Shown: piece after piece, positions 2,216 through 24,642 of the stretch
How positions within the stretch are numbered: the first letter of the stretch is position 1
Layout: the number at the start of each line of letters is the position of its first letter
Source: Psammoneis japonica
Lineage: Eukaryota
Direction of reading: 5' to 3'
DNA: 24,642 nt
NCBI GenBank assembly: GCA_008632985.1
Contig: QPGO01000016.1
Location: forward strand, 62,001 to 86,642
Position numbers and translations under genes: made by a program
Notes under the pieces: model-generated
What the model saw: the letters and a program-made list of their open reading frames with translations, nothing else
Databases searched by the model: none
Told to the model about the DNA's origin: nothing

Positions 2216-3118
2216 GGTTGTTATTTCGATTGGTTGTAGGTCATTCCCAAGTAGTGCGATTTCGATCGAAACTGTTGTGTTGCATTGAAGTTTGTGAAAG
2301 AAGTGTAAAGTGCGCAAATCGAGATTTCAGACGTGCGTGTGCAAGCATGATTCAGCATTCATTCACCGTAGCACGACTGATGATGGCACATCATGTTGTT
2401 TATTCAGACGCGACTCCACGTTTTCAAACGTGTGTATTCGTCCGCAATGTGGGCACGCTTTTCACACTGCTTCAGCATGCGATGCACGTGGTGTGCTGTG
2501 TCGTGAAAATTCACGCCAATCTCCGACGACTATCCAACGCATCCGCATCCGCCGATTTGTACAAAGAAACATTCTACCATCGACAAGGTGAGTGCAGATA
2601 GACTGATGAAGACTTATTGGACATCCTCAATCGAACATCCTGTGCTCAGTGCAAACTCTCCATTCTGGACAGTGCCAATTTATTGACGGGCGCAGTCGCA
2701 TCCGATGCCATGGCCGCCATCTTGGGAGTCTGCTTTCTGCTTCTGCCTTATTGTGCACGCACACTTCTACCGTATGCTGCCTACACCAATACGGACTACG
2801 GACGTGCGCACTGCTCGTGAATCATTTATCATCCATCCCCCGTGCGGTCCCTGGTCTGTGGAAATGGCGGGTTGCTGCTGAATGACGGGATGGTGCGAGT
2901 CCAACTCTCGATGCAGCTTTCATTGATCAGAGGGCTTAGCACTGGCTCAGCAACAAGAAAAGGATCTTGCCGTCCACATTTCCGGGTCATTCGAAAGAAC
3001 ATAAAAGATGGTTTGCTTGCTGCTCTAGCTGGCTGGCAGCAGCAAAGCAGAAACTGCACCATGACCAAGGACGAGGCAGAATGCTTGCAAGAGGCAACCA
3101 CTGTTGAAAGGAGAAATC

Positions 3119-4765
3119 TCAGCCAATGAAGCATTGCAGTTCATTTTGCTCATTGTGTGAGTGTTTGCCATTGCAGGGCCACACATCGAACTCGATGCTT
3201 GCCTGATGATTCTTGTGGATGGCGTTGCAACATTTGCACACGTCCCCGATGCTGACAACAGAACAGTCGAGGTTTCCATCTCCACAGCCACTGTTCTCAT
3301 GATGCCACAAGTCAAACTTGAGTGGCCCAGCACCGCTTTCCACAAGAGAATCAAAGTCCTGCGGTGACACACAATTTCCATTTTGAAGCTTGGATGCATT
3401 GATGAATGACAGATTGCCACACACTCATCTCGCCATTCCAAGATCCACACTCAGCACCAGAGTGTGCCAGTGAGCAGCCATTGAAACACCACATTCACAT
3501 GGAGCAGCAATGTCCTTTTCTGCTTGGTGTTCCTGATCATGACCATTTGCGAACATTGCCCAGCCACCATCTTGAACACCAATGTCCAATGCTTGGCCAC
3601 AGCAGACAGCGGATCAGCAGCAGCTCCAACATCCCACATGGGAGGATTGATGGGATGGCAGCCATTTTGAGCAAGACCTGCATTCTTGTGTTCCTCACAA
3701 GAAGCTCAAACTGCAGATGTGACTGTTGCAATGGAAGAGTCGCAGTTGGGGAGGACAGGGAGTTCAATGGTGGGATTGGGTGCAGAAGGCTTGGGAGTGT
3801 TGTTGTCATTGCATCCAGGAAAGTCGCAGCATCCCAAGCCAGCTTGCATCCATTTGGCATCACACATGGCAATGAGGGCATTGCAGAATGCTTGACATTC
3901 CATGGAATCTCCAAAGTGGAAGAAGTGGTGGCCATTGATCACATTGCCACTCATCTTGCAAAAGCACACATCATCAAATGCGAGACTTGTTCCTTGAGAG
4001 ATGAATGGGTCCGACTCGGCCTTGCATGTGCCAATCATTGCATTGGCACAGTGTTTTTCTTGGTGCAAAGGAAGATGTTTTGCAACTTCAATGAGGGGTG
4101 CTTCAAATGCAGAGTCAGGATCGGCATCGCGACAACTGGCATCACCAACTGTGAATTCGGTGACCCCGACATCACTGCATTCCTTGTCACAAACCTTGCA
4201 GATGACTTTACCTTTGTTGTCCTTGTCCATGTCAAGACAAGTTTCACCCATGATGTGCTGCATGTCAAAAGACATGTCAAAGCCACAGTTGTGCTGGAGC
4301 AAATCATTGTCCTCCAACGCGTCAATGAGAAGTTGCAAGTCAACAGCCTTGGATTTGGCGGGGCAAGAGAATGCCAAGTCATCAAAGGAGTCAAAACAGG
4401 CTGATGCAGTCACAGTTGTGCTGCAGCTGTCTCCTTCAATGCATCCAAGATGACAAGCCGCGTGTCAAGTCATGTTGGTCATGTTGACTTCAAACTTGGG
4501 ATTGGCAGCGAATGATGGTTCACAAGCTTTTGCACTTCCTTTTGCAAGACCAGTGCACTTGAGACAGGGCTTCTTGGGCTTGAGCACTCAAAAGGTGATC
4601 CAATGGATGGAACATGATGAGAGAGAAGTTTGTTTGTGAGTGAGCTGTGGCAAGCCACTTCATTCTCACTCTTGTCCAAGCATCGTCCAAGGACACTTTC
4701 GTTGATGCCTTGAGCAAAGGAAGCATCATTGTGGTTGCCAACACAAAGATGGTGGAGATCTTCAT
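3119..4765 (-). pseudogene. Decayed gene for a secreted, acidic, Cys-containing protein (family not recognised)
   Basis: Signal-peptide-like start MKISTIFVLATTMMLPLLKA at 4765, followed by collinear minus-strand fragments 3706-4413 and 3119-3424 with protein-like Asp/Glu-rich composition. These are interrupted by stops and frameshifts and contain no Tyr. Confidence 0.45.
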
Positions 4766-6589
4766 GACGCTGCCAAAGTGCTTGTGTTTCATTTCAGTTC
4801 ATGTTTTTTGTGTCATGATAAATGCCTGCAAGTTTGTTGGGTTCTCTTTGCTGTTCTCATTGCATGTTTGCTTCCGCACTTGTTGGTGGCACTCGGCACT
4901 GCTTCACAGTGCTTTGTGGGGTGCGTGGCGACAGCATGCCTTCCTCATGTTTTTTGTTTTTTGTCTCAGCATGCATGATGCATGATGCAAAAAATGGTGA
5001 TGCAGTGGCATCAGCAATCCAATGATGCCACAGAGGGAGAGCACATTTCTGCATGACACATGAGGAAATGGATCTTGGTTTTGATGCACCACATGGAGTG
5101 CCTGAGCACAATTGTCCGGGCAGAGACAAGAATTCTGTGATGAGGTCTCTGAAAGCACTCACTCAATCAAGTCATTCTTGACTGCATGAATGGCATTGGC
5201 GTGTGTCTCCAACAGTTTCATCAAGTTCGCCAAATAAATGACAAGGGTGCAAGAGTCTGTTTTGAAGCTTGGACACTTGCTGTGTCCCTGGAGCACTTTG
5301 CTTCATCCCACCAGCCACCACCACACCAGGTGGCAGTCCTTGGTGCAAGGTTTTGGAGACCTCAAGCACTGCTCAACTTTGTTGAGACTTGAGCAAGGGC
5401 AACTTGAGCAAGGACACCTGCATTGAAACACAATGATGGCTCTCCATGCTGTGAGAATTGCGGCCCCCCACCTTTGTTCATTTTGCTTTGTCAACTCCTT
5501 GCTCATTTTGCAGTTGTTGCCTGCTGGACTCCAAGGTGCAGCAACTTGCATTGCATGCTCAATGAGAAAGCCACTTGAATGATTTTTTCTCTCAGAAGCT
5601 TGAGTCAAAGCCATGCACACCGCTGCTCTAGAGTGGAGCGCAACTCCAAAACCAGTCGATTTGGTGCAGCCATGACCAACAACAACAAAAACTGCTTCAG
5701 TTGCTGGCAGTGTTCCCAGCCGTGTGGTGCAAGATGAGCAGAAGCATTTTAAATGAATTGCTGACATTAACTCAAGATTGGAGTGTGGCCACACCATGCT
5801 CTCCAGTGGCTGAAAAGACTCGCCGATCATTTTGAAGTGTGCCAATTGTCATTGTGGGTTCTGCTGGGTCAAAAAAGAAAAAGTGTGCATGACAGCAGAA
5901 GAAACTGTGGCTGGTGTTGTTGCAATCTGATCTTTGAGCTTGTGCATCTCATGGGTGCATCAACCTTGAAGTTGGATGTGTCCAAGCTCTTTTTGGCCTC
6001 CACTGCTGTGTGGGCACAACTCCACATTGAAACATTGTTCTGATGCTCATTGATTTTCACAACCAATGTTGTCTGCAGCAGTGGCACCTTTCATCTTGAT
6101 TTGTTGTGGCAGGTGCATGCAGAAATTCTTTTTTTTGCATTGGCGCACAGCAGCCAGCAACAAACATTGTCACCCCCCCAAAAAAGGTTCAAGATGAAGC
6201 ATCACAAAAACATCATCAAGATCAGACACAATGACATTTTCTTGCTGAACAGCTTAAATTCTGCCAAGTTCACTTCTGCTCACCTGAGAACTGCTTGCAT
6301 CTCAGAAAAAAAGCTCCCAGTGCAAGAGAATCTGGGATGGAGCCACGCGATTCAGCTCCTGTGTAGAACAGGTTGAGTGAGCTTTTGCATGCACTGTGCC
6401 CGTGGCTGGCAGAGCAAGAGCAGTGGCAAGAGAACTGTGGATTGGCTGAGAGGCAAGAGAGGTGGTCATGAGAAATGGAGTGCTGCATCATTCAGCTTCC
6501 TGTGTTGTCGCTGCTGAGTCACCCAAGAGAGGGAGTTGATGAAACAGCCAAAACACAACTGGCCAACTGGCAGTGTGCATTGCCAAAAC

Positions 6590-8430
6590 AATGCACCAGA
6601 TGAGCCTTGCAACACTCCACCATTGTGTTCCCTGGGTTCCACCAGAGATTGTTGCACTGGTTGGTTGGTTGTGTCATGGTGTTCTTTCTCTGAGGAGACA
6701 GGAGTTTTTCTGCTCTCACTCTGGCACAGCTGAAGTGACTGGCTGGTGAGCACCACTGCATGCTTTTCAAAACTCCACCACCACCCTCAAAGTGTCCTCA
6801 GGTCTTCCCCTGCAGATCTTTGATGCCTTTGGCCTGCAGCTCATGGGTTGGTTGGTTGCATCAAGAGGTGCCCTTTCACTCTGGAGCAGGCAGGAATTTT
6901 CCTCCTCTCATTTTGGCATGAATTGAGTGTCTGGGAGCTGGAGCTGCAACAGACAAGCCTTGCAACACTCCACCACTGTTCTCCAAGTGTTCCCTGGGTT
7001 CCATGGGAGACCTTCAACAATGCCCTCAGAAAGCAGTCATTTGGTTGGTGGGTTGCATCAGGGTGTCCATTCACTCTAGAGCAGTTTGGCAGTTTTTCAG
7101 CTTGTCTCAATCTGGCATGAAGCAAAAGTGACTGGGGGCTGCAACTGCACCAGATGAGCCTTGCTGCACCTGAGCACCAATCTCAAAGTGTTCCCCAGGT
7201 TTCACTGGAGAAATTCAATGCCCTCCAGCCTGCAGTTGTTGGGTTGGTTGGTTGTTGCGCCACCAGGGTGTTCTTTCTCTGAGCAGTTGTTGGGCTTTTC
7301 TGCTCTCACTCTGGCATGCACTCAGTGGTTGGTGGCAGCATGCACACCAGATGGGCCTTGCAACACTCCACTGCCATTCTCACAGTGTTCCCTGGCTTCT
7401 TCTGAAGAGCTTCAGTGCCCTCAGCATGCAGCAGTTGGGTTGGCCAGTTGCATGATGTGTTCTTTTTCTCTGAAGAGTCAGGAATTTCAGCTCTCACCAC
7501 GTCATGGAGTGAGTGACTGGGGGCTGCACTTGCACCAGATGGGCCTTGCAACACTCCACCACCAATCTCACAGTGTTCTCTGAGTTCATGTGAAGACCTT
7601 CAATGCCCTCAGCCTGCAGTTGTTGGGTTGGTTGGCTGCATCAGGGTGTTCTTTCTCTGAAGAGTCAGAAGTTTTTCTGCTCTCACTCTGGCATGACAAC
7701 TGCACCAGATGAGCCTTGCAATGCTCTGCCGCTGTTCTCAAAGTGTTTCCTGGGGTCCACAGGAGACCTTCAATGCCCTCAGTTTGCAGTTGTTGGGTTG
7801 TTTGGTTGCATCAGTGTGACCTGTCACTCTGGACACAGGAGTTTCAGCTCCTCTCACTCTGGCATGGATCAAGCAATTGGTGGCTGCATCAACTGTGCAA
7901 GATCAGCTTTGCAATGCTCGCCACTTTTCTGGGAGCATTCCTTTGGTTCCAAGGGAGCATTTCAATGCCCTCAGCCTGCTTTTGTTGGGTTGTTTGGTTG
8001 CACCAGCATGTCCTTTCACTCTGGAGTTAGGAGCTTCAGCTCTCACTCTGGCATGGACAACTTGGTTGGTGGCTGCAACTGCACCAGATGAGCCTTGCAA
8101 GAGTGCTCCACCTCTTTCTTCAAAGTTTTTTTAGCTCCACAAGAGACCTTTGGTGCCCTCAGTTGCAGTTGTTGGGTTGGCTGGTTGCACAAGGGCCATC
8201 TTTCATTTTGGATGCAGCAGTTTCAGGTCTCACCCTGGTGTGGATCAAGTGATTGGTGGCTGTGACTGCACCAGGCCCAGATGAGCCTTGCAGTGCTCCA
8301 CCACTGTTCTCAAAGTGTTCCCTCAAATCCACAGGAGACCTTCAATGCCCTCAGTCTGCAGTTGTTGGGCTGTTTGGTTGCGTCAGTGTGGTCGTTTCAC
8401 TCTGGAGTCAGGAGCTTCAGCTCTCACTCT
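6590..8430 (+). repeat. Tandem array A: ~10 diverged units of ~170-200 bp
   Basis: Anchor CCAGATGAGCCTTGCAA-like motif recurs near 6597, ~6765 (degenerate), 6950, 7150, 7347, 7535, 7705, 7900, 8084 and 8277. Each is followed by CTCAAAGTGTTCC...CTTCAATGCCCTCAG...GTTGTTGGGTTG...CACTCTGG. Confidence 0.9.
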
Positions 8431-8767
8431 TGCTTGCTCTTTAAGCTGACAAAAGTGCTTTTCTTGGCACTCTCCTCCTCCCATTGGAGGGTCACCATTG
8501 GGCAGAAGACAGACCTCCCACACATCACAGATGGTCAACCTCTTGAAACAAAGCTTCAATGTTCACACACAATGACTAAAATTGCAACATGCTTCTTCCG
8601 TGAGATGACCACCATGACTCAGAAGAAATGGAGCATCCAAACAAAGAAGGGGCAGACCATCTGGGCTCAACCTCAGACACACTCCTCCACCCCTCCTTGA
8701 TTTGGAGACATTCAGTGAAAGACGAGTCTCACCCTGGACATGTGTGCCACCCAAGTCTGGAACAAGT

Positions 8768-9225
8768 CAACAGCATTGCATGCTCAATCCCAAAGAAGCG
8801 TGGCAAGGTTGTCAATTTCCACAATTTGGCAGCACAAGAAAAAATGGACCTTGCAACCAATCAATTTCAACAAGGAGTGTGCAAACGTCTCAGCATGTGG
8901 GCATGAAGAACTTTGCTGATCGCAACAACAAAGGACATGAGAGTGTGAGTCATGTGCCAAATCTTGTCCCATGCCTCCCAAAGGAAACCACTGATGATTT
9001 GGTTGTGGCTCTGCTTGCCATGAAACATGTGCATGGCAGGAGATTGACAAAGGCAATGAGCAGTGCAATGAATGTGCAATCACAATGGGGGCAATGGCAT
9101 CAGCAAAGACAGATTGGTGACAACAGTGTTTGTTTCACCAAAAGTTGAAATTGTGTGGTGAGCAAGATGGCCATTCATTGTTGAGGCTGGCACCATTCTT
9201 TGTGAATGTGCAGAGAGACTGTGCC
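8768..9225 (-). pseudogene. Hypermutated paralog of the 5' region and upstream sequence of the gene at 15282-17518
   Basis: Aligns by eye with 17197-17662. GCTCAATCCCAAAGAAG..GTCAATTTCCACAATTTGG matches GCTCGATCCCAAAGAAG..GTCAATTTCCATAATTCGG, and TTGAAATTGTGTGGTGA is shared. Confidence 0.85.
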
Positions 9226-9493
9226 AACCACAAAAACCCATGGAATGCATTCAGTCACTTGCAGGCTCTGGGCAGAAACAATCAAAGGCCGAGACTGATG
9301 TGAAATGTGTCCACAATGAACATTGGCCATTTCAGAGCAATGTTCTCTGCAGGTGCAATGAAGTTGAGAAATTCAAGGTTGCTTCCACAGAGCCCAGCAT
9401 TCCACTTGCTGCTGTGATGTGTGAAACACTCAAGTGCACTTTCCCATGTCACACTGGGCTGCACTCAAAGTCCAAGCTCATGCATCAATCTGA

Positions 9494-10400
9494 GTGGGGG
9501 AGACTGAGGTTTGTCATGCAGTCAAATCTTGGAACACAGGCACAGACGGGCTTGGCATCGAGGAGTTCCACAAGCTTTTTGGTGCCCACACTTGCTCCTG
9601 GCAGCAGAATCACCTGGTGGAGACCAACAACCTTGGCCATGACACTCTTTTCAGGATCAAGAAAGGCAAGGATGGATCTTTGACATCAAAGCTCATTGTT
9701 TTTCACATTGAGCAGGCTTTTGACTTTGTGGCACAGCACCATGGACACACAGGTGGTCATCTCAAGTTGGGTCACACACTCAATGACATGAAGAAGAAAA
9801 GTTTTGCAATGTCGCAGAGATGCTGGTTTCTCACTTGACCTTTGCCCCACTTGCAGCAGCAAGGTGCAGCCATCTGTGGCAAGAGCTCAAGGTGCTTGAG
9901 TCCCTGCCATGAGATCATGAGCTCCTGGAGTTTCCAAGACCATTTCCAGAATGACTGGATGGGTTGCCAAAAAAACTCACACCAGTTTTGCCATGGGACC
10001 CTGACCCCCCAACCATGAAGTGGCCTCATGGCTTCAAAAGATTGCTGCACGAGATTGATCTGAACTGCAGGTTGCTGAGGAGTTTTTTGCCACACTCACT
10101 CTTTGACCAGCTGCTGCTTTGTCAGCCACACAGACAAGAACAAGAAGGAGTTCACAGCAGAGCAAGTGACCAAAGACATCCAGGAGCTCAGCCCGTGCTT
10201 CAGCACTGTCCAGGTGAGGCACCAGGGGTCATCTGTCAAGCACTCCAACTGTGTCCAGTCAAAAACAGCCATTGCTTTGCCAGTGAAAGAGCAGCACTGC
10301 AATGACATCTCTCAATGCAACAACCGACAAAGGCAAAAATGAGTGCTCATCTTAATTTCATGTGTTTCACATGGAACCCAACGAGCTTCTGACCACTGCT
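9494..10400 (+). mobile_element. Degenerate Ginger/KRBA2-SCAND3-like DDE integrase (transposase) remnant
   Basis: Across frameshifts: HHCC zinc finger (FDFVAQHHGHTGGH ~9720-9760; LDLCPTC ~9834-9854), first catalytic-Asp region SWSFQDHFQNDW (~9923-9958, cf. F(R)D(R)FQxD), MKW/LMASKDCCTRL (cf. KW..KDH.T), second Asp HTDKNKKEFTA (~10127-10160, cf. HTDNGKEF), and RHQGSSVK (~10217-10240, cf. QGSVE). Confidence 0.7.
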
Positions 10401-11414
10401 CCTCTCTCACAAAGCTGTCAACTCACCAAGAATGTTGCTGAGCACTGTGTCATCATTGGAGGGGGCTACAAGAGGAAGATGATCCTGGCAGGTGAGGTGA
10501 CTGAGGAAGAGATTTTGGAGTCCCCAGTGCAGAGGTTGGCCAAGGGCATGTGGCTCCTCCTGGAGCTGCCATCATCAACCATCTGTCTCCTGCTTCAGAG
10601 ACAAGTGCTGTTGATGGGGACTTCAAGGCAGAAGGCCCTGAGCTGCAATCCAACACAGTGGGCCCACATGCTGGTGCAACAAGCAGTGCCCTTGCTTTGT
10701 TCTCTCTAACAAAGCAAAGTGCTGGTGACACATTGACGCCAGCCAACATCAGAAGCTGTGGTGCTGCCAAAAGAGGCCCATGTGTCCAAGGAGATGAAAC
10801 AGGGCAGCAGCATGGCACCACAGACAATTCCTTCAAAGAAGAGGAAAGTGGGCATCGTGGAAAAGCCAACCAAGTCAATGCAAAATAAAGAGCAAAATCC
10901 AATAAGTCCAGAGCTGATGGCAAAGCATGGCAGCAGCAGCAGCAGCCAGCCATTGAATGGAGCCAGAGACGTCTTCGTCTGCCTGCATGCCGCACCGGCA
11001 CCGGGCACCGGTGTCAGTATTTTTTTCGGCATGACGATGACAAAGCTCGCCGGATTGTGATCATCACATTAAGTCGACATTTTGCATTGGCGTGTAAAAA
11101 GGAACCTTTTTCGTGGTACGTTGAGTGTTGTTGATCTTCTCAGAAAAAGCATTTGATTACAACAAAGTATGCTTTTGATCTGCGACGCATACTTCTAATT
11201 CTACTTTTCATCTGTTTTTACGTTGGTTCGCGACGTGGTTTGTACCAATATGAAGTTGGGCTCCATGCGCTCGAACTACACTCCTTCCAATCACACTTCG
11301 GCATCAGGCCTCAGACCGGCGGACGCATTGTGCCTTATAACATGAGATTCAAGATGTTCCGCAATCAAGGTTTCTCGTACAATCATTTGTTCATTCCTGT
11401 TGCGCCATTCGCCA

Positions 11415-11990
11415 ATGGCCTTTTCTTCTAAAGCGTCTTCTGCTAGGACCTTTGTTATTACCGGTGCAACCGATGGGATTGGTCGGCACACGGCAGAAAA
11501 GCTTGCTTCTGATGGGTATGGATTGGTTATACATGGACGCCGCCCGGAGGTTGGTATGGAGGTGGCAGAAAATTTGAAAGACCGTGGTGCCGCCTTTTGT
11601 CACTACATCAACAGCGATTTGGCAGATTTAGCTCAGGTGAATCAGCTAGCAAAAGAGATTGGGAACGTGGTAGACAAGATTGACGTTTTAATCAACAACG
11701 CTGGCGTCTTTGATCCAACGCCGAGGATTTCAAAGCAAGGACACGACATGACGTGGGCTGTCAACGTCATGGCTCCCTATTCGTCTTGACACGAAAACTG
11801 CTGCCACTTGTGGCGCGTGGTACAGACCCGAGAATCATTGCAACATCCTCAATAAGCCAGTCATGGTCAATGCCAAGTCTGGATGATTTGTTTGCAAAGG
11901 ATAAAGAATTGGAATCCACGGGATACTCGGCGCACAGAGCCTACAGTCATTCGAAATTGGGGGAATTTGATGTTTATCTGTGAAGCTGTC
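11415..11990 (+). pseudogene. Short-chain dehydrogenase/reductase (retinol-dehydrogenase-like), frameshifted and 3'-truncated
   Basis: TGATDGIG Rossmann motif, DLADL, DVLINNAGV, AVNVMAP. A 2-nt insertion at ~11778 shifts the frame; it then continues FVLTRKLLP...TSSISQ...catalytic YSHSK. Further 1-nt indels occur near 11960-11978 and homology is lost after ~11990. Confidence 0.85.
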
Positions 11991-12641
11991 GGTGCTCAGC
12001 TTGTCTATTTGGAGAGCTTCTCTGTCCACAAAAGGACTTGCAGTGGGCCCATCACAATATCCGGATGCTTATGATGTACGGGTAACTCTCGTATTCCCTG
12101 AAGAGAGCATGGTTTGTGTCTGTGGGTTGTTTCTGACTCCGTTCCCTATACAGGGACATCGCTTGTACATGGAGGACAACTATTTGCTACGTCATGGGTG
12201 GCTTCTCCTCCAGCCTAGTCACCATATTATTGTCCAAAGCCTTTTTGTCAGTTTCTTTGACTCTGACAGCAAGGATGGTTACGGTCGCAGTAGGGCCTGT
12301 TACATGCAATTGTATGTTCACCGTTGAACTCATTGTGGTGCTGTAATGGAAGATGATACAGTGACGGCGTCTCCTGAAAACATTCGTCCTCCAGAAGAAG
12401 TCGTTGAGCGCCGCATTCAAGCAAATGGAGTGGACGAAGAGTAAGAGAAAGATGACGAGAAGACAAATAGCGTGCCGTCGTTTTGGAAATGCTGGGGGAC
12501 TTGCCATCTGCCGGTGAGTATGCACTTGCAAGCGTTCGACCACATTGCTTCTTGTTCTCTTATATGCACTGTGTTTCGTTTTATTGATATCAAAGCTCCT
12601 GAGAAAATTGTGTTTGTTTGCAAATATTGAATCCAGCGACG

Positions 12642-14287
12642 GACTACCGGAACATGCTGGTTGGGGCCGTTCATGGATGCGCTGTGTGATTCTTCAATTT
12701 TGCCGGGTCGGTTGTTACTGCCCCATGGACTTTTTGGCCGCGGATGGTGCTATGCAGGTTGCTCTTTTTGTCAGAGCTTTTCCATCTCGCCCAAGTTGTT
12801 GGGTTTCGTCGAGGATATTGTACGCATGTCTCTGGATCTTGGGTGAATACTCGCATACGGAGGAAACCGATGTGGAGGCCTTTGAAACTACTTCCATCAG
12901 TTAGGTCCGACCCCATCCTTGATCACCAAGGAAGAGAATCATGAAGAGAAGCACGAAGGAGGAGAGGTCCCAAAACGATTTCTAAGAACGTTGTGTCTGT
13001 CGACGTTACTTATGCGACCCAAACCGTCTACTCCGAAGCCTTCTGCCGGACGAGTCGGATAATACTCCTCATTTGCGCAAGATGGCGATTGGTGGCGACG
13101 TCTTTTCTTGGGAACCATTCTAGCGTCCTGCCTGACCAAGTTGTTTTTGTGGGCTATGGATCAGCCTCAAATGGTTGCATTGGCGATTAAGAAAATGACG
13201 TCCGATACGCTGCTTATCATGTGCGGCGAAGTCAGAATATCCGAGGCCAGCGTTTCAGGTCAGCGTCCCGCTGTGGCTGATTGTTCGGAACGCATTACAC
13301 TATGCTGCCGTGCGCTATTGGGCTCCAAGGCTTGTATTTTACTCAAGGATACTCTCCTGAATGATCGCAAAGTAACGTTTGCCCAGTTTCTCAAGACGCT
13401 CAGGGACAAAGAAACCACAGATGCTTCGGCCGACGACGAGGACGACACAGGCATACTGGCCACGGCGCAGCTTGACGACTTGATCCACTTTCGTCAGCTG
13501 TATTCCATGGCTGTTCAGGGTGGTGATGCCGACTTTGATGGCGGAGACGATTTGGAACGTGCCACTGGGTATGCCGGTGCCAACGATTTGCTTAGTTCCG
13601 AACTCAATCATGTCTACCAACTCAGTGGGTTTGCGGATAATGTCTACGCGGAGGCCTTTGTCACGGTCCATGATTATGACATTGTTTTGGAGATTCTGGT
13701 CATCAATCGTACTCCCAACACACTAGTCAACTTTACGGTGGAGCTTGCCACGATGGGTGACATGAAAATCGTCGAACGCCCGCAGTCTCAAAATATTGGC
13801 CTTCTCGATCAGATCACCGTCCGAGCCTCCATCAAGGTCTCCTCCACCGAGTCGGGGCACAACTTCGGCACCATTGTCTACAAAGACACAGCGACATGAG
13901 AGAAGGGATACATCAATCTCAATGGTATTCACATGGACATTATGGGTTACACCCCCCCCGGCAACTTGTACCGACGAAGCCTTTCGATCCACCAGAGCGT
14001 GCCCGTGTGGGATCAGTCCTTATGCGTACCTTTAGCGCATTGGTGCATAATGTCTATTTGCTGATACAACTCGAGTTTCGCAGTCTTTGAACCACCAACT
14101 AACACACTCGTGCTTTTTTTGTTCTTGTAGTGTCTTTGGCGAAGACGCCCTCGTACATGTTTCGGTCGAGAAGGAGGACGACAATGACGGAAAGTTGGCG
14201 GGGTACATACGGATTCGCTCCAAGACACAAGGGATTGCTCTTAAATTTGGGAGATCGCATCATCAGCGTTCAGAGATCCATGCCTGA
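12642..14287 (+). pseudogene. COPB1: Coatomer subunit beta (beta-COP) pseudogene: C-terminal half with deletions
   Basis: Recognisable blocks DYRNMLVGAVHGCAV*, MDFL..DGAMQVALFVR, CLWILGEY, TYATQT, DDLIHFRQL, YQLSGFADNVYAEAFVTVHDYDIVLEILVINRT, IKVSSTESG, INLNGIHMDIM, PATCTDEAFRS, SVFGEDAL and GYIRIRSKTQGIAL. In-frame TGA at 12687-12689 and 13897-13899, plus frameshifts and missing segments. Confidence 0.9.
14098..14130 (+). other. Intron 3' end (branch point, pyrimidine tract, acceptor) retained in the beta-COP pseudogene
   Basis: ACTAAC (~14098) ... TTTTTTTGTTCTTGTAG ends at 14130, directly before T-GTC-TTT-GGC (S/VFGEDAL). Confidence 0.65.
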
Positions 14288-15281
14288 AACCAAGCAGTAA
14301 AGCAAATGATCGGGATAAGGAACACCGAGTGTATTTTAAACTAAAAAATACCACTTCTTTAGCATGACACTGCACGAACTAGCCCCACTGTTGTGTATTG
14401 ATCCTACTCTCTAGAGATGCTTCTCTCCCTCGGTTTGATTTCCCGGGCTACTACTAGGGTCGATCGCTTCCTTGACGCTAATAGGGAACGGGCCTTACAA
14501 GGAAAAGACCCGTGGAATTGGGCTATGTGGCTCAAGCCTCTACTAGCAATAGATATGGTTTGCGATAACAAGATTATAGGGACCCATTTTAGAACAAGAA
14601 GATTGAAAAGCTACATGAATACGAACATCAAAGTTCTATACATTTATTCTAGACGCCACGGAATGTTATCCTTCGTTTACTACCCCAGAGAGGAGCCGCT
14701 ATCCTTCCTGGCGCATAAACAAAGTCATTCCGTGACGCCAATACTTACCTAGCAATATCCGTTCTTTTACAATTCATTCTCCACGTCCGAAATAAGTAAG
14801 GATTTGGTTCATTGACTACCGCGGGTCTTGAACAAATACAGAGTTGTCGTTTCGCATTGAAGCACCAATCATGCCTGGTACACATTTTGTTCCGGAAAAC
14901 ATAAGTCGCGGGGCGGGACCCACTGTTACTTGAACCTTGGTACTTCAAAAAAGACTGACTGCCGCATCGTTTCAAGTCGGGTTGTCGAACCGGGGTATAG
15001 GGTGTATTTCTATGTTGACAAAATAAAGATGAAAAGCAACGTCAGTAAACAAATCTCGAATGAAAAGAAAAATAGACACGAAATCGACTTACATTGGGGG
15101 TGCATTCGAATGTAACGTAACACAACGAACGCACCCCATGGTATTGAATTGCACGACAAACTCGTGCAATGTTGGCGAGTCTTTGATGCGCACAAAAGCT
15201 GTATTGTACCGTGACATGGAATCGAGAGATGCCCCCATGCATGCTCGATTTCCTAGGGTACAGAACAAGCAGTTAATGAGT

Positions 15282-17518
15282 CTAGCGGCGACTCATGATC
15301 CTTGCGGATCTACGCACGACACGCCCAGTGTTGGACGAAAGAAAGAGACTGCCAGTGGCTTGACGGAGCCTAGGCGAGCGTCTCAATGGGACAGGATGGA
15401 CTTTTTCCTCCTTGTTTCTCACAACTGTAGCAAAAGGAACAACACCCTCCTCCACCACTGGATCATCGTCGGCAGCCATATCCAGAACGTCCAATGCATC
15501 GTCAGGCTCCTCGGCTACTACTCCAAGAACGACTTCCTCTTCATCGTATGCAGTAATTGCAGGATCGTTTATGGTGTCAGCAACAGCAGGTTCCTCAATG
15601 ACAGGAGCGGGAATGATTGCCTCTCCGTCGATTGTTGCCTCGTTCATATCAACTGCAGGATCGTCCAAGGCTTCATCGTCAGGAACCATATCCAGAACGT
15701 CCAACGCATCGTCAGGCTCCTCGGCTACTACTCCAAGAACGACTTCCTCTTCATCGTATGCAGTAATTGCAGGATCGTTTATGGTGTCAGCAACAGCAGG
15801 TTCCTCAATGACAGGAGCGGGAATGATTGCCTCTCCGTCGATTGTTGCCTCGTTCATATCAACTGCAGGATCGTCCAAGGCTTCATCGTCAGGAACCATA
15901 TCCAGAACGTCCAACGCATCGTCAGGCTCCTCGGCTACTACTCCAAGAACGACTTCCTCTTCATCGTATGCAGTAATTGCAGGATCGTTTATGGTGTCAG
16001 CAACAGCAGGTTCCTCAATGACAGGAGCGGGAATGATTGCCTCTCCGTCAATTGTTGCATCGTTCATATCCACTGCAGGATCGTCCAAGGCTTCATCGTC
16101 AGCAGCCATATCCAGAACGTCCAACGCAGGCTCCTCGGCTACTACTCCAAGAACGACTTCCTCTTCATCGTATGCAGTAATTGCAGGATCGTTTATGGTG
16201 TCAGCAACAGCAGGTTCCTCAACGACAGGAGCGGGAATGATTGCCTCTCCGTCGATTGTTGCATCGTTCATATCCACTGCAGGATCGTCCAAGGCTTCAA
16301 CGACAGGCTCCTCTTCTACAGCAACAGGAACGCCCATCTCCGCATCGTCTGGTGCGTCGTCAACAGTCACAGTAGGTTCGTTCAAGGCTTCCCAAGGCTC
16401 TTCAACAACATCAGGAACTACTTCCTCCACAGCATTTAGATTGTTGTCCGTGTCCTCAGCCGGTTCCATATCCGAAATATCCGAGGCATCGTCAGCAATG
16501 GGGTTAATGTCCGTAGCCTCAGCGGGTCCAACGGCCGCTGTAGTCCGTACCCAGCCATGCCAATGATCACACCAAAGATCAGAGTCCCAGTAATGAATAC
16601 TTTCTTCCTGACCCGCATCAAATTCGAGCATCGCCACAGCCAACTGCTCATCATTCAACACGGGTATCACACGGGTGTAACGTGCGCGTCGAAGAACGCG
16701 TTTGGCAGGCACACGGGTTGGATTGGGAGGAGCGTCACCAACGCAATGGTTCTTAAGCATCATTTGGTCAGGTTTCCACCTGACATGCCTTTCTACTGGA
16801 ACAGCAAGAGCCTCGGCCGGTTCCATGGCCGCTTGAGTCCGCACCCAGCCACGCCAGTGATCATACCTTGGATCCGCATGACACTCACGAATGTATCGGT
16901 CTTGTTTCCGGTCAAACTCAACCAGCGCTGCGGCCAATCTCTGATCATTCAATACGGGTATCATATGGGTGTAGCGAGGGATTCGAAGAATTCTTGGAGC
17001 AGTCACGCCGGTTGGATTGGGAGGAGCGTCACCAACGTAATGGTTCTTTAGCATCATTCGGTCGGGTCTCCATTTAACAAGACCGCCACCAAATAGTTTT
17101 GCTTCAAGAGCAGCAGCCACGGGAACAGAAACCGCAAGGGAACGTAGAGGGCATTATACATGGTCCATACAACCACTGCAACCGCGAGAGTAGCCGCAAC
17201 CGCATCGCACGCTCGATCCCAAAGAAGAGTCGACAGGTCGTCAATTTCCATAATTCGGCGGTACAAGAAATAGACAATCAACTTCAACGAGGAGTATATG
17301 AAGATCACAGCATATAAAGCGAGGAGAGCTGTACAGACTCCTACAGCGAAGGACGCCAGTTCTTCAATCATGCATCGGATCCCGTCCATTGCAACGCTCG
17401 AGAATATCCAAAGTTCCCAAAGAAACCCGCTGACGATTCGGCCGTGGTTCTGCTTACCGTGAAATACGCGTAGCAGAAGATTCATAAAGAGAACGAGTAG
17501 TGCAATATATGCAATCAT
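15282..17518 (-). CDS. Probable single frameshifted gene: N-terminal hydrophobic/TM region (17054-17518), duplicated ~98-aa domain, four acidic 70-aa repeats and a basic RRSxR tail (15282-17120)
   Basis: The 154-aa hydrophobic ORF overlaps the 612-aa ORF. The latter has only a GTG start with a TAA just upstream (~17155), so one indel would fuse them. C-terminus is LRRSPRL...VRRSARI. Family not recognised. Confidence 0.55.
15463..16299 (-). repeat. Coding tandem repeat, 4 x 210 bp, near-identical
   Basis: TCCAGAACGTCCAA recurs at 15481, 15691, 15901 and 16111. The last copy on + has a 6-bp deletion. The frame is preserved (70-aa acidic unit). Confidence 0.95.
16515..17077 (-). repeat. Older internal duplication, 2 x ~294 bp
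   Basis: GATTGGGAGGAGCGTCACCAACG occurs at 16721 and 17015. The protein repeats W(R/K)PD.MMLKNH.VGDAPPNPT...IPVLND...DHW.GWVRT. Confidence 0.9.
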
Positions 17519-17767
17519 AATGGGGGTAGTGGTATCAATAAAGATAGATTGGTAATAACAGTGTTGGTTTCAATGCAAGCAAAACTTGAAATTGTGTGGT
17601 GATCGTGACGGTCGCTCGTTGTTGTGGCTGGTAGCATTCGTGAATGCGTAGAAACTGTACTGGAAAAGCCCGTAGAGAAGCCGACCGTCAGTCACGCTTT
17701 TCAAGTTTTGACGGGAAGTTGCGGCACGTTTGCATTCGGTTGCTCGTAGGCTCTACACTGTAGCTAG

Positions 17768-19719
17768 CAGCAGGAAGAAACGAAAATCAGAGGTCATCAA
17801 AGCATTCCAAGAGATGCCTGTGGCCCATGGAAATGTTCTGAAACACAGGGAGAGGCAACACACCGGCCTTGAGCGCCTTGGAGCTGATGTCTTTGGCCAC
17901 ATTGGCAAGAACCCATCCCATGCACAAAGTCAAAGGTGTGCTGCAACAAGAGGCAAGGTGTGCTGGGCTTGATGCACTTGTCTCCCACCACCTCAGCAAA
18001 CAACCCAGGTCATCTGCACACAACTCTGCCTTTGATGCAGCTGGCACTTGCTGTCAAAGTGGCTGTGCAGAAATGTGCAAAATGTGGGTGAGACTCATTG
18101 CCAAGTTTGAGCCCACTGCGGCAAGAGAGGGAGACCCTTGCAAGTCAGAACTTTGGAGGTCTCATGACCTGTCCACCCCCTGAGCTGTGGGGCAACAACA
18201 AAGTTTAGAGTGCCAGTGATTTGTTTTTGTGCATGGATCAGACCCAAGCATTTGACACGGATCAAGTGATTGGAGGCTGCAAGTGCAGCAGATGAGCCTT
18301 GCAATGCTCCGCCACTGCTCTCAAAGTGTTCCTTGGGTTGTTCCAAGGCAAACTTCATCGCCCCAAGCCCTCAGTTGTTCAGTTGGTTGGGCGGTTGCAT
18401 CAAGGCCCTCTTTTGCTTGGACTCAGCAGCTTCGGGTCTCACTCACTCTGGAGTGGGTTGAGTGACTCTGGCGGCTGCAACTGCACCAGACAAGCCCTTG
18501 CAACACTCCACTGCCATTCTCAAAGTGTTCCCTGGTGCCCACCAGAGTCCCTCAATGCCCTCAGCCTGCTTTTGTTGTGTTTTTTGGTTGCATCAGTGTG
18601 TCCATTCACACTCTGGAGTCAGGAGTTTCAGCTTTTTCACTCTGTCGTGGATCAAGTGATTGGTGGTTGTGACTGCACCAGGCCCAGATGAGCCTTGCAA
18701 TGCTCCGCCACCATTCTCAAAGTGTTCCCTGGGGTCCACAGGAGACCTTCAATGCCCTCAGTTTGCAGTTGTTGGGTTGTTTGGTTGCATCAGTGTGTCC
18801 GCTGACTCTGGAGTCAGGAGCTTCAGTGCTCACTCTGGCGCGGTGGTGGATCAAGTGATTGGTGGCTGCAACTGCACCAGACGAGCCTTGCAATGCTCTG
18901 CCACTGTTCTCAAAGTGTTCCCTTGGGTCCACAGGAGACCTTCTCAATGCCCTCAGTCTGCATCTGTTGGGTTGTTTGGCTGCATCAGTGTGCCCTCTGA
19001 CTCTGGAGTCAGGAGCCCCCCAGAGCTCTCTCTCTCTCTCTGGCATGGATCAAGTGATTGGAGGCTGCAAACACAGCAGATGAGCCTTCCAATGCTCCGC
19101 CACTGTTCTCAAAGCATTCCTTTGGTTCCAAGAGAGCACTTCAATGCCCCCAGCCCTCAGTTGTTTGGCTGGTTGCGCCAGGCGCCAGGGTTCTTTCTCA
19201 CTTTGGACTCAGCAGCTTCAGGTCTCACTCTGTCATGGATCAAGTGATTGGTGGCTGTGACTGCACCAGGCTCAGATGAGCCTTGCAATGCTCCGCCACT
19301 GTTCTCAAACTGTTCCCTGGGGTCCACAGGAGACCTTCAATGCCCTCAGTTTGCAGCTGCTGGGTTGTTTGGTTGCACCAGCCACCAGCCACCAGCCAGT
19401 GTGTCAATTGACTCTGGAGTCAGGAGTTTCAGCTCTCACCACTCTGGCACGGATCAAGTGATTGGAGGCTGCAAATGCAGCAGATGAGCCTTGCAATGCT
19501 CTGCTGCTGTTCTCAAAGTGTTCCTTGGGTTGTTCCAAGGGAGCACTTCAATGCCGCTGTGTTCCAAGAAGGAATCAGGAACCTTGAAGGGGGGGGGTTG
19601 GAGGCGGAGAAGAACGATTTCTTGTGTCATCATCCGAACAAACGCATCAACACATCTCACTTCGACAAACTGCTGTTGCCCACAGCGTCCACTCTTCTCT
19701 CTTCTTTTGCAAGCTCCCT
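17768..19719. other. TpA-depleted hypermutated domain 2
   Basis: Only one TA seen (TTAG at 18206) in ~1.95 kb, whereas both flanks contain normal TA. CpG is reduced but partly retained. Confidence 0.9.
18258..19555 (+). repeat. Tandem array B: ~7 units of ~190-215 bp, same family and orientation as array A
   Basis: GATCAAGTGATTGG(A/T)GG anchor at ~18260, (18460 degenerate), 18650, 18849, 19048, 19238 and 19452. Each is followed by a GATGAGCCTTGCAATGCTCC...TCAAAGTGTTCC-like motif. Confidence 0.92.
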
Positions 19720-19732
19720 TTACCATTAAAAA

Positions 19733-20143
19733 ATGAGTCTCAATAACATATCCAGCTCTCTCATTACCCCCACGCTTGCGTCCTTTGCAGCGTGCCAAGT
19801 TACTGGGTTTCTTTGGTACGGACCCTTGTTTGGAAAGCTCTGGATGAAAAAGATGAAAGAGGATGATCCTACGTTTGATGTTCACGGCTCGACTCCAGTG
19901 CTTGGAGCCGCTGTCACGTGGTTGACGTCGTCTGCCATGTTTTCATGTTTGGTATCCATGACGGGTGCTGCCAAAGGTGCGGAACTTGTTTCGCTCGCGG
20001 GAACGGCGTGGCTGGGCTTTACCGTGCCCGGTCACGTCTTTGCCGTCCTATTTGAAGGCCGAAACGTGACTGTCAATGTTTTAGGCTCAGCCTACATTCT
20101 TACCTCCCATCTTATAATGGCTGGTGTTCATTATTTGCTTTAG
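19733..20143 (+). CDS. DUF1761-like small multi-pass membrane protein (136 aa)
   Basis: GFLWYGPLFGKLWMK motif typical of DUF1761, four hydrophobic segments, ATG preceded by AAAAA, normal dinucleotide content. Confidence 0.75.
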   Translation: MSLNNISSSLITPTLASFAACQVTGFLWYGPLFGKLWMKKMKEDDPTFDVHGSTPVLGAAVTWLTSSAMFSCLVSMTGAAKGAELVSLAGTAWLGFTVPGHVFAVLFEGRNVTVNVLGSAYILTSHLIMAGVHYLL

Positions 20144-20965
20144 AAGTCAGCTGGGCTCTTATTGCGGGTATATTCGTGGCTGCCAAGTCGGTCGGAGCTC
20201 TACCAGCCAGATATTTGCGAGTCGACGATAAGGAGACTTACTGTATTACGTTTGCATAATCTATCTGTGAATGCATTGGTTGGCGGTAATTACTGCGAAA
20301 CAAAGTGAAGAGGAATAAGGAATAATGGTTTGAACAACAGGATAGATCAAGATTCATTCCATTATAGCAGTATTTATCGTGCTCTGCCAAGAATTGCACA
20401 TCCTCATGAAGGATGACTTCTTTGTTGTTATCATTGATTTATTGAGTGGCGTTATCAACCGAGCAGGACCATTGTTCTCAACGCAAATTGGCCATCTGCG
20501 CTGCCAGAGACACTGTGCACCTTCTTTTTGACAGCACGCTCCGATACTTGTACATACTTCTAATATCTTGATCGACCCAGTTGTTCCAAAACACTCTCAA
20601 ACACTTCCTTCCGGGTGTAAGCACCGGATGCGCTGATTTCAGATTAGTATGGTCCATGGATTTTTAACTTTTCGAGTAAAGGATTTTTCGGGTTTGCCAA
20701 GCTAGAGTCCGCAATTCGGTTTTAGTATCTTGTGCTTTTTCACCTACTGGTATGCACGCACAACGGCCGGACAGAGAGCTACCGTATCATAGGCCGGAAC
20801 GCGTAACGGTTATGAGCACTAACTCAATTTTTGAAAACCGCGAGCTCCATCCAACAAAACAAAAACCGCACGCATCTCGGTATTTCATTCACATCATCAT
20901 CAATCAGCAGAGCACAACTGAACCAGTGGTGTGTCCTTCACTATCATTTTTTGGCGCTTCATACA

Positions 20966-22783: not shown

Positions 22784-23098
22784 AACTTTATTAATGATAT
22801 GAACCAAAAGTCTCGCTTTGATGTTGGAGCTTTATTTGCTGGAGAGAGCGTGTGTGCCGGCTAATAATCGCGCTGATGCTGATATATCACTGTTGAGTTT
22901 CAATGACGACTTTTTTCAATACCATGTGTCGTTAGTGGATTATGATGTTTGATCGATGAAGAACAGTGCGGGGTGGCAGACGCAACGAATCGCGATTTAG
23001 TTGCTTTCCTCAAACTATACTTGGAAAGTACTCTAAAAAGGAATGGATCCATGTTTGACGTTGGTCCCTGTGTTCGCTCTACCACACTCTTGTGATGG

Positions 23099-23142
23099 CT
23101 ACAGTACGACTGTAGAGTGCAGCCCTCTAAAGTAGGGCTGCA
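23099..23142. repeat. Two adjacent perfect inverted repeats
   Basis: CTACAGT-acg-ACTGTAG (23099-23115) and TGCAGCCCT-ctaaagt-AGGGCTGCA (23118-23142). Confidence 0.7.
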
Positions 23143-23311
23143 ACCACAACTGCATAGAGAGCTTTAAGATAGTGAACGATCATGATTTAAATGTTGCACC
23201 ACACTTTCCGCTCGAAGCTAACTGACAACATGTGTCCCCTCGATGCCATTCGAGACTCACTAACGTCTCGATTGCATTCTGTCCCACCTGATGTCTAATG
23301 CTTCCAGGTGC

Positions 23312-24394
23312 TTAAAAGACACCGATTCGAAAGGCGAGCCTGATTTGTTTCAAAGCTGTGACCCAACTTCCAATGGCAGGTTCGGGCACCTCAGCAGCGT
23401 TCTCGGGTTCTTCCCAGGGTTTCAAAACTGGCAGAGAATCTTGCAGAACGTTCATCAAACGCATTGACGTGTCAAACACTTTCTTTCCCTAACATTTTGC
23501 CTTCCACTCAATCGCAGAGCGACTGTCAGACAGAATTGGGTTCAGAAACGAAACCTTTTCGAAAAGAAGGTTCGTCTGAGTCTTCGCTGGCGTAGTCAAG
23601 CGTGTCGACAATTCCAAAACTCTCTTCCCCCAATGTCCAACGCTCGATTTGATCTCAGAGAGATGGCCAGACAAGATTGGGTTCCGAAAAAACAGCAAAA
23701 AATTGTCGCGTTCCTGAAGAACGAGTGCCTGAGTCTGGATTTGCGTGATGACGTTGTTCGAAATTTCGTCTGCAAGTTTCCGCCAAAGCTGAAACGCCGC
23801 CGACTTGACATCCGAAAAGATGCTGTGCGTGTCCGACAAGACGGCCAACTGGATCTCCAAAAATGTCGTGAACGTGTCTTGGAGCACGACTGACTTGGTC
23901 TCAACCGTGCTGTTGGGTGTGGTGTTGTGAAAGAGTTGCTGGAGGCTGCTGTTGGAGTCGCCATTGTTGTCCTGAACAAAATGTTCACAGACACAATGCT
24001 CGTTGGCGTCTTCTGCTGGTGCAATCATGGGCATGGCATTGCGCAGGAGGCCTTGGACGCGACTCGGAGACTTGTCGCCATCGTCAAAATGAGCGCAAAA
24101 GCTGGAAATGAGGATGGCGTTTTCGAAGGGAACAGTGTTGGGAGCGCCATTGCTGGTGATGTCATGGCAGCAGCTGGAGGTGGTGTCAACATCTGAGCAA
24201 CGGGTGTTGTCCAAAAACTTGCACGGGAGCTCTTGGTCAATCATGGCGATGCTGTCGGTCACCACGGTTGCCTCGATCGACAAGGCGCTGACGCCGCGCT
24301 TTGCCGCATCAACAAACGAGGCAGAGAGAGGGCTGATGATGACACCAGTGCTCATGGCGGCAATGACAGCAAGGACAAAGTTCATGATTTTCAT
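23312..24394 (-). pseudogene. Tyr-free gene relic with a signal-peptide-like N-terminus and one internal stop
   Basis: Starts MKIMNFVLAVIAAMSTGVII at 24394. Internal repeat NPILSGHLSEIKSSVGHWGKRV versus NPILSDSRSAIEWKAKC*GKKV shows that the TAG at 23489-23491 sits at a Trp position. The frame continues to TAA at 23312-23314. The 377-aa ORF has no Tyr. Confidence 0.55.
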
Positions 24395-24622
24395 GATGGA
24401 CTGTGAGCTGACGAGCAATTCAGAAATTGTGAGAGCACTCAAACAAGAAGAGATTCTGTCTGCAAGGGAGGTGCCGTGGCACAAGACACACAGAAATCTG
24501 CGTGGCGTGGGCCGTTTCTCCATTGCATTTGAGTTGGAAGAAAGTTTCGCGATGGTTGTTTTGTCGCAGATGGTGCACCTGTCGAGCTTGGATGATCGTG
24601 CTGTTCCACGCAGCTGGCACAT
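23595..24622. other. TpA-free, CpG-retaining domain 3
   Basis: No TA seen in ~1.03 kb, and only two more back to 23315, while CG dinucleotides are abundant. Confidence 0.9.
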
Positions 24623-24642
24623 TAATTCTAGAGTGCGAGGCT

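Follow-up and report, generated by a model that had tools for sequence, protein, structure and literature searches.

Probable flank-dependent loss of TpA from repeat, satellite and gene-fragment DNA in a window of the Psammoneis japonica genome

We analysed a window of 24,642 nucleotides (nt) from Psammoneis japonica (assembly GCA_008632985.1, contig QPGO01000016.1, positions 62,001–86,642, forward strand); coordinates below are positions within the window. In three blocks of this eukaryotic window, made up of repeat, satellite and gene-fragment DNA, the dinucleotide TpA (hereafter TA) has been locally turned into TpG or CpA. The few TA that remain are strongly biased in their flanking bases. 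We sort TA sites by these flanks (Y, pyrimidine; R, purine; N, any base) into YTAR sites, which have a TAY trinucleotide on neither strand, single sites, which have TAY on one strand, and RTAY sites, which have it on both. The three blocks, referred to here as domains, are as follows:

3027..10880, no strand: domain 1, TA-poor and CG-poor, with 16 TA, 11 of them YTAR
17800..19600, no strand: domain 2, TA-poor and CG-poor, mostly satellite; its lone TA is at 18206 (TTAG)
23200..24642, no strand: domain 3, TA-poor and CG-normal, with 8 TA at its edges, 7 of them YTAR

The depletion is deep and has sharp borders. Per kilobase (kb), the observed/expected ratio (o/e) of TA is 0.00–0.09 over 3001–11000 and 0.02 over 18001–19000, with TG and CA at 1.5–2.3 times expectation, and the genes in between hold 3–18 TA per 200 bases. 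Domains 1 and 2 pooled have o/e values of 0.03 for TA, 0.15 for CG, 1.90 for CA and 1.71 for TG, compared with 0.61 for TA and 1.00 for CG in TA-normal DNA, for which we took positions 1–2800, 11100–17780 and 19650–23200 of the window as the reference. Domain 3 has a TA o/e of 0.00, with zero TA in its interior (23594–24622), and a CG o/e of 0.92.

The direction and the specificity of the loss can be read from a pair of paralogous sequences, one copy of which lies in domain 1:

8768..9245, plus strand: converted copy of 17197–17677 (68% identity; 84% in purine/pyrimidine code)
17197..17677, plus strand: TA-normal and CG-normal copy, used for polarising changes

At 23 of the 24 TA and 28 of the 29 CG of the TA-normal copy, the converted copy reads TG or CA. 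Per base, A>G changes were found at 24 of 53 adenines in TA, 8 of 68 in AA and 7 of 65 in GA. The process is thus specific to TA rather than to WA (W, A or T), and the loss is directional and local. A polymerase-eta-type WA signature comprises A>G at TA and AA both; mutagenesis of this type is disfavoured here by the undepleted AA (o/e 1.13 and 1.38, versus 1.11) and by an A>G frequency at AA close to that at GA. The copies also differ by several indels and 28 transversions, and their divergence is therefore old and real. In domains 1 and 2, CG has been lost to TG or CA in parallel with TA, a likeness to methylation-driven CpG decay. Domain 3 is unlike such decay and, because it lacks TA yet has normal CG, the TA purge is separable from, and independent of, CpG decay.

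These observations also bear on the idea that heavily modified bases in silenced DNA were miscalled, so that TA and CG merely appear as TG or CA. The three sequencing runs available are all from one sample, probably the one from which the window was assembled, so that agreement among their contigs is not independent; this leaves some room for an artefact. A 10,251-letter contig of run X1 spans 3001–6619 with 0 differing letters and, among the 40 differing places listed of approximately 2,490 between the runs and the window, none falls within the TA-poor domains. Miscalling would have to be reconciled with a converted paralogue that carries the indels and transversions of an old, real copy, with TG and CA outcomes that are both found at equivalent sites, and with a domain 3 that loses TA and keeps CG. 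We give it scarcely any chance.

An initial annotation of this DNA listed the TA remaining in 4209–10904 and described them as biased to YTAR. Its count stands, with every listed coordinate and context correct: this stretch holds 18 TA, made up of 11 YTAR, 7 single and 0 RTAY sites. Outside domain 1 it listed six more (18206, 23296, 23313, 23490, 24623 and 24629), likewise all YTAR. The sites in 4209–10904, and the further TA that we found in the low-TA zone of domain 3, are:

YTAR in 4209–10904: 5629, 5750, 5768, 6255, 7077, 8028, 8132, 8442, 8577, 10353, 10707
One TAY strand in 4209–10904: 4209, 4819, 5235, 6364, 10467, 10886, 10903
Domain 3 low-TA zone: 23219 (CTAA), 23261 (CTAA), 23593 (GTAG)

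TA-normal DNA has 73 YTAR (13.9%), 280 single and 173 RTAY (32.9%) sites among 526. Against this background the YTAR excess is significant for 11 of 18 (binomial p=4.5e-6) and for the 12 of 17 that fall within our domain boundaries (p=1.6e-7). It is also significant against TA-normal DNA outside long open reading frames (ORFs; 32 of 189 YTAR, 17%; p=1.5e-6) and against the flanks of all TG and CA steps in the TA-poor domains, which are the pool for new TA (620 of 2,366, 26%; p=1.6e-4). A boundary-free count, in which TA sites with <15 other TA per kb within 300 bases form the TA-poor set, gives 15 YTAR, 7 single and 0 RTAY sites (n=22), compared with 80 YTAR among 538 other TA. In TA-normal DNA, the NTAN spectrum is reversed (RTAY 33%, YTAR 14%), and the genes thus carry no trace of low-level exposure to the purge.

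Could the converted repeats have been rich in YTAR and poor in RTAY from the start? Domain 1 has ancestors without family matches, and YTAR is slightly commoner in non-coding than in coding DNA (17% versus 13%), both of which would suit such an ancestral composition. The sole unconverted relative in the window—the TA-normal paralogue copy—nevertheless has 0 YTAR among its 24 TA, and RTAY-type slots are plentiful in the TA-poor domains (R_Y 568, single 1,306 and Y_R 663 steps, counted in purine/pyrimidine code). We regard this explanation as very improbable.

Counted per strand, the 34 half-sites left are 18 TAA, 11 TAG, 3 TAC and 2 TAT, compared with 216, 210, 325 and 301 of 1,052 in TA-normal DNA; TAT and TAC are thus equally depleted. 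The base at +1 of the A is a purine in 37 of 44 half-sites, versus 41% in the background. Adenine is also enriched at +2 (22 of 44, versus 25%; p=0.004, with five positions tested). Three of the remaining TA (4819, 5235 and 5750) share TAAATG, and a fourth (6255) lies in TAAAT. Two of these four, 4819 and 5235, are ATAA sites with TAT on the other strand, which hints that a run of A after TA protects beyond the +1 base.

Two arrays of one satellite, identified by Tandem Repeats Finder (TRF), nhmmer and monomer alignment, allow some remaining TA to be polarised:

6590..8435, plus strand: satellite array of 10 monomers of ~190 bases, in domain 1, with TA at 7077, 8028 and 8132
18259–19555: second array of this satellite, with 7 monomers and a higher-order period of 392 bases; forms most of domain 2

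The 17 monomers lie in arrays 10 kb apart. Because contigs of run X1 link the arrays (8096 to 18695 is one such join), the genome probably holds many further copies of the satellite. A search of metagenome contigs for a 21-base word of the satellite gave 0 matches.

The initial annotation took the residual YTAR sites to be survivors and held that its case would fail if they proved to be new mutations. The first part is not borne out where it can be checked: all three polarisable TA are derived, as 7077 is TG in eleven other monomers, 8028 is CA in twelve and 8132 is TG in the aligned monomers. The flank rule is not refuted by this, because new TA are expected in YTAR only 26–34% of the time and the new TA that are absent far outnumber those that are there. 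Monomer-specific transitions that would create TA (C>T at CpA and G>A at TpG) together number 2 of 404, and comparable transitions that would not (C>T at CpY and G>A at RpG) number 29 of 508. At the latter rate, 38.8 new TA would be expected in the satellite and 3 were seen, a 13-fold shortfall. By class, 3 were seen versus 13.1 expected at Y_R steps and 0 versus 25.7 in the other classes. New CG is similarly short (4 of 401, versus 37 of 853). Most simply, the arrays have also been purged of the TA that arose within them, with YTAR lasting longest. Strictly, the shortfall shows only that TA arising after the monomers diverged were also removed.

The derived sites are also evidence for a different account, in which the purge has no flank preference and the TA now present are new, having been made mostly in YTAR; C>T changes at TC, or at CAG/CTG through methylation of non-CpG cytosine, could have this effect. 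Besides the derived state of the three sites, this creation bias would draw on two of them, 7077 and 8028, both of which are C>T at a C that precedes AG on one strand, and on the 9 of 17 remaining TA that are NTAG or CTAN. The other 8 (5 TTAA, 2 ATAA and 1 TTAC) cannot derive from CAG/CTG. The 13-fold shortfall implies that removal acts on new TA, and the strand choice described below concerns conversions, which creation bias leaves unexplained. We consider creation bias improbable.

How much faster one context is lost than another can be estimated from the classes themselves. Flank classes in purine/pyrimidine code are immune to transitions and served as the basis for class counts of YpR steps; within these classes, the expected number of ancestral sites was scaled from TA-normal DNA. 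In the domains, 12 of ~63 expected YTAR sites are left (19%), 5 of ~215 single sites (2.3%) and 0 of ~129 RTAY sites (0%). The preference is therefore relative, as ~80% of expected YTAR sites were also lost. An additive model with independent strands, each lost at rate a when TAY and at rate b when TAR, gives a/b = 3.5, predicts 0.4 RTAY sites left (0 seen) and predicts 78% conversion on the TAY strand at one-TAY sites.

That last prediction can be compared with the strand on which conversions occurred, an estimate that leaves the remaining TA unused. One-TAY flank classes contain 686 TG-type and 533 CA-type steps in the domains, and 542 and 465 in TA-normal DNA. Taking the excess of TG over CA in these classes, and assuming that CpG decay splits evenly, we estimate ~152 conversions on the TAY strand and 58 on the opposite one, which puts the TAY-strand share at 72% (bootstrap 95% confidence interval 0.53–0.92; P(<=0.5)=0.014). 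By domain, the share is 0.66 (domain 1), 1.03 (domain 2) and 0.75 (domain 3). The even split is supported by the CpG changes in the paralogue pair, 13 to TG versus 15 to CA. In the same pair, the changes at TA are, as the initial annotation had stated, mostly RTA>RCA or TAY>TGY: 19 of 24 fit, with 4 exceptions and 1 transversion, and 10 of the 14 informative sites fit. At RTAR sites, 9 of 13 became RCAR and 4 became RTGR.

Four partly independent estimates, from class survival, strand choice, the paralogue pair and the satellite, agree, and it is likely that TA followed by a pyrimidine is lost approximately 3 times faster per strand. The T-A-Y target preference proposed in the initial annotation is upheld by strand choice at one-TAY sites and by the class shortfall in the satellite; it is not absolute, being approximately 3-fold per strand. 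We likewise think it likely that a flank-dependent, TpA-erasing process explains the bias of the remaining TA.

Such a process would act locally, changing A:T to G:C at TpA only and on both strands to give TpG or CpA. On each strand, the A of 5′-TA-3′ would be changed ~3 times faster before a pyrimidine (TAT, TAC) than before a purine (TAA, TAG), with further protection apparently conferred by an A at +2. Loss would be fastest at RTAY, where both strands are good targets, intermediate where one strand is TAY, and slowest at YTAR. The TA present today would then be members of the slow class, either old sites that have so far escaped or sites derived from TG or CA through ordinary transitions and still unpurged.

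Several points weigh against this account or limit its reach. It rests on one 24.6-kb window, on 17–22 informative TA—a small sample—and on an ancestral flank spectrum borrowed from the gene-rich TA-normal DNA of the window rather than from the ancestors of the repeats. ATAA persists at two to four sites (4819 and 5235, and 10886 and 10903 at the domain edge) despite TAT on the other strand. The strand-choice estimate depends on its assumption, as the TAY-strand share shifts from 0.61 to 0.84 for a CpG split of 0.6 to 0.4, and it falls short of significance when domain 1 is taken by itself (P=0.086). So does the 9 of 13 in the paralogue on its own (one-sided binomial ~0.13). Satellite columns in which TG and CA are mixed were too few, and too structured by subfamily, to speak to strand choice. 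As to the agent, the sequence cannot tell an event directed at A from one directed at T on the opposite strand, and nothing in the data points to a particular enzyme.

The agent would be an enzyme that acts on DNA. The simplest candidate is an adenine deaminase, which converts A to inosine, read as G; such an enzyme may gain access to an adenine more readily when both neighbours on the same strand are pyrimidines. The same flank-dependent process could run on other chemistry, with the T of TpA modified (for example, hydroxylated) and read as C, or with error-prone repair synthesis placing G opposite T after T. A>G and opposite-strand T>C look alike in sequence, and TAY and RTA are identical by symmetry. 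For the repair route, a polymerase-eta-type WA signature should strike AA too, which is at odds with the AA results given above. Taken together, we judge these other chemistries unlikely, although deserving of more weight than the alternatives discussed earlier.

Comparison with known adenine deaminases separates the candidates further. The initial annotation had named a TadA/ADAT-like enzyme as one plausible effector. The natural target of TadA/ADAT, A34, follows an invariant U33, and the context in the tRNA-Arg anticodon loop is U-A-C. The T-A requirement of these enzymes fits the T at −1 here. The C-specific +1 of TadA's natural target has no counterpart in our data, as TAT has been lost to the same extent as TAC, and the resemblance to TadA rests only on the T at −1 and a pyrimidine at +1. 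ADARs prefer G after the edited A and act on double-stranded RNA. ADAR-like editing is disfavoured here, as TAG is protected (11 of 34 remaining half-sites, versus 210 of 1,052, or 20%, in the background), and an RNA intermediate would not account for changes that fall on both strands and reach a satellite as well as a gene fragment. In the discussion of a preprint on Bigelowiella natans, ADARs are noted for A-to-I changes with U preferred before the A (bioRxiv 10.64898/2026.01.13.699255). According to a review, an engineered TadA-8e variant (A48E) is reported to prefer YAC (PMC13109818). BjADAT2/3, a natural ADAT shown to edit DNA, is described as preferring GAA for A and TCG for C (PMC10354150); our data differ in both respects, as the context here is TA and the remaining CG are not TCG-poor. 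A single 5′-T-specific A/C deaminase (acting at TCG, as BjADAT2) was rejected because of these CG contexts (TCG at 48 of 184, versus 436 of 1,520 half-sites) and because domain 3 loses TA and keeps CG. GCG is somewhat enriched among the remaining CG half-sites. Deaminases of the TadA/ADAT type carry an HxE-PCxxC motif; the ORFs of the window that were scanned contain no deaminase domain.

It is possible, although on balance we remain doubtful, that this lineage has a natural DNA adenine deaminase, directed to chromatin or repeats, which keeps clearing TpA from silenced DNA independently of the decay of methylated cytosine. The substrate rule that such a deaminase would have is put forward equally tentatively: T at −1, pyrimidine over purine at +1 by ~3-fold, and a protective A at +2.

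Repeat-induced point mutation (RIP) of ascomycete fungi changes C to T at CpA in duplicated DNA and so enriches TpA. What we observe resembles RIP in being a local, dinucleotide-specific transition hypermutation that ruins repeats and leaves neighbouring genes intact. Unlike RIP, it destroys TpA and enriches CpA and TpG, which is the opposite direction and a different base; in the satellite, C>T at CpA is the rarest transition (1 of 192). A closer parallel comes from Bigelowiella natans, in which integrated DNA of giant viruses and virophages undergoes TpA-restricted hypermutation; the preprint that describes it also mentions RIP in its discussion (Mettrop et al., bioRxiv 10.64898/2026.01.13.699255). 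According to its main text, TpA-depleted, CpA- and TpG-enriched coding sequences are enriched in reverse transcriptase and DDE domains, and an ADAT2-like candidate is reported alongside the TpA restriction. As described there, and as in our window, A:T changes to G:C only at TpA to give TpG or CpA, and the changes are confined to foreign or repeat-like regions, the rest being normal. Unlike in Bigelowiella, a chlorarachniophyte, the depletion here is far deeper (o/e 0.03), and the process has struck a satellite, the copy of a gene fragment and DNA that fits no class. The main text of the preprint, supplements aside, contains none of the terms context, flanking, neighbo-, trinucleotide or tetranucleotide, and a +1/+2 flank rule is not described in it. 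The preprint was the only report that we found in the literature on TpA-erasing processes in diatoms or other algae. Set against that main text, the window extends this kind of process to another genome, where the purge is much deeper and follows a flank rule that the main text does not describe.

Other features of the window, in and around the domains, are:

13108–13899: coatomer beta C-terminal region, a gene in TA-normal DNA
20831–22783: SAP/DEAD-box helicase, a gene in TA-normal DNA
23489–24640, minus strand: tyrosine-free open frame of 383 codons, in domain 3

Domain 1 matched 0 Pfam families, whether ORFs or a six-frame read-through (with X at stops) was searched. Within it, the summed X1 depth over 3668–5668 (63) equals the depth of the 10,251-letter contig alone, and no other contig is at least 80% alike; this TA-poor stretch is thus not recognisably repeated now. 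In run X2, the type of which was guessed, cover is zero over 3001–11004 and almost none over 17675–19675, and the genes are covered; we draw no inference from this. The tyrosine-free frame of domain 3 matches no Pfam family, and a search of proteins of 210–671 residues gave no homologue at E<=0.001. The frame may be a recently hit gene or element, the Tyr codons of which were turned into Cys or His. It also carries an internal repeat of ~140 bases (23454–23548 and 23595–23689), with a single TA difference between the units. Four tandem 210-base units, 96% alike, occupy 15463–16307 in TA-normal DNA, within a long ORF (15282–17120, minus strand); this young repeat is untouched by the TA purge, though only 1.5 kb from domain 2. 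Among 74 metagenome loci around relatives of the coatomer beta gene (422,082 bases), no 1-kb window had a TA o/e of <0.15; these are gene-rich contigs of other organisms and are silent on how widespread the process is.

Until now, hypermutation of selected regions from A:T to G:C specifically at TpA has been the subject of one preprint, on an unrelated alga, the main text of which does not identify the effector (bioRxiv 10.64898/2026.01.13.699255). Fingerprints such as a quantitative flank rule have led to the enzymes responsible for other mutational signatures, for example TC for APOBEC, WRC for AID and the neighbour rules of ADAR. The rule found here separates enzyme classes, and it argues against ADAR-like and polymerase-eta-like routes. 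It can also be compared with the 230 de novo TpA mutations of Bigelowiella listed in Table S2 of the preprint and used for screening candidate deaminases. If the deaminase reading were true, the rule would be unlike the UAC of TadA, the UAG of ADAR and the GAA of BjADAT2, and would mark a new specificity class, possibly a new family; base-editing work, too, could profit from a natural mutator of DNA adenine that has a defined context. For the genome of P. japonica itself, newly arising TA in the satellite have been removed too, and the domains are therefore at or near a balance between mutation and purge, rather than relics of a single event.

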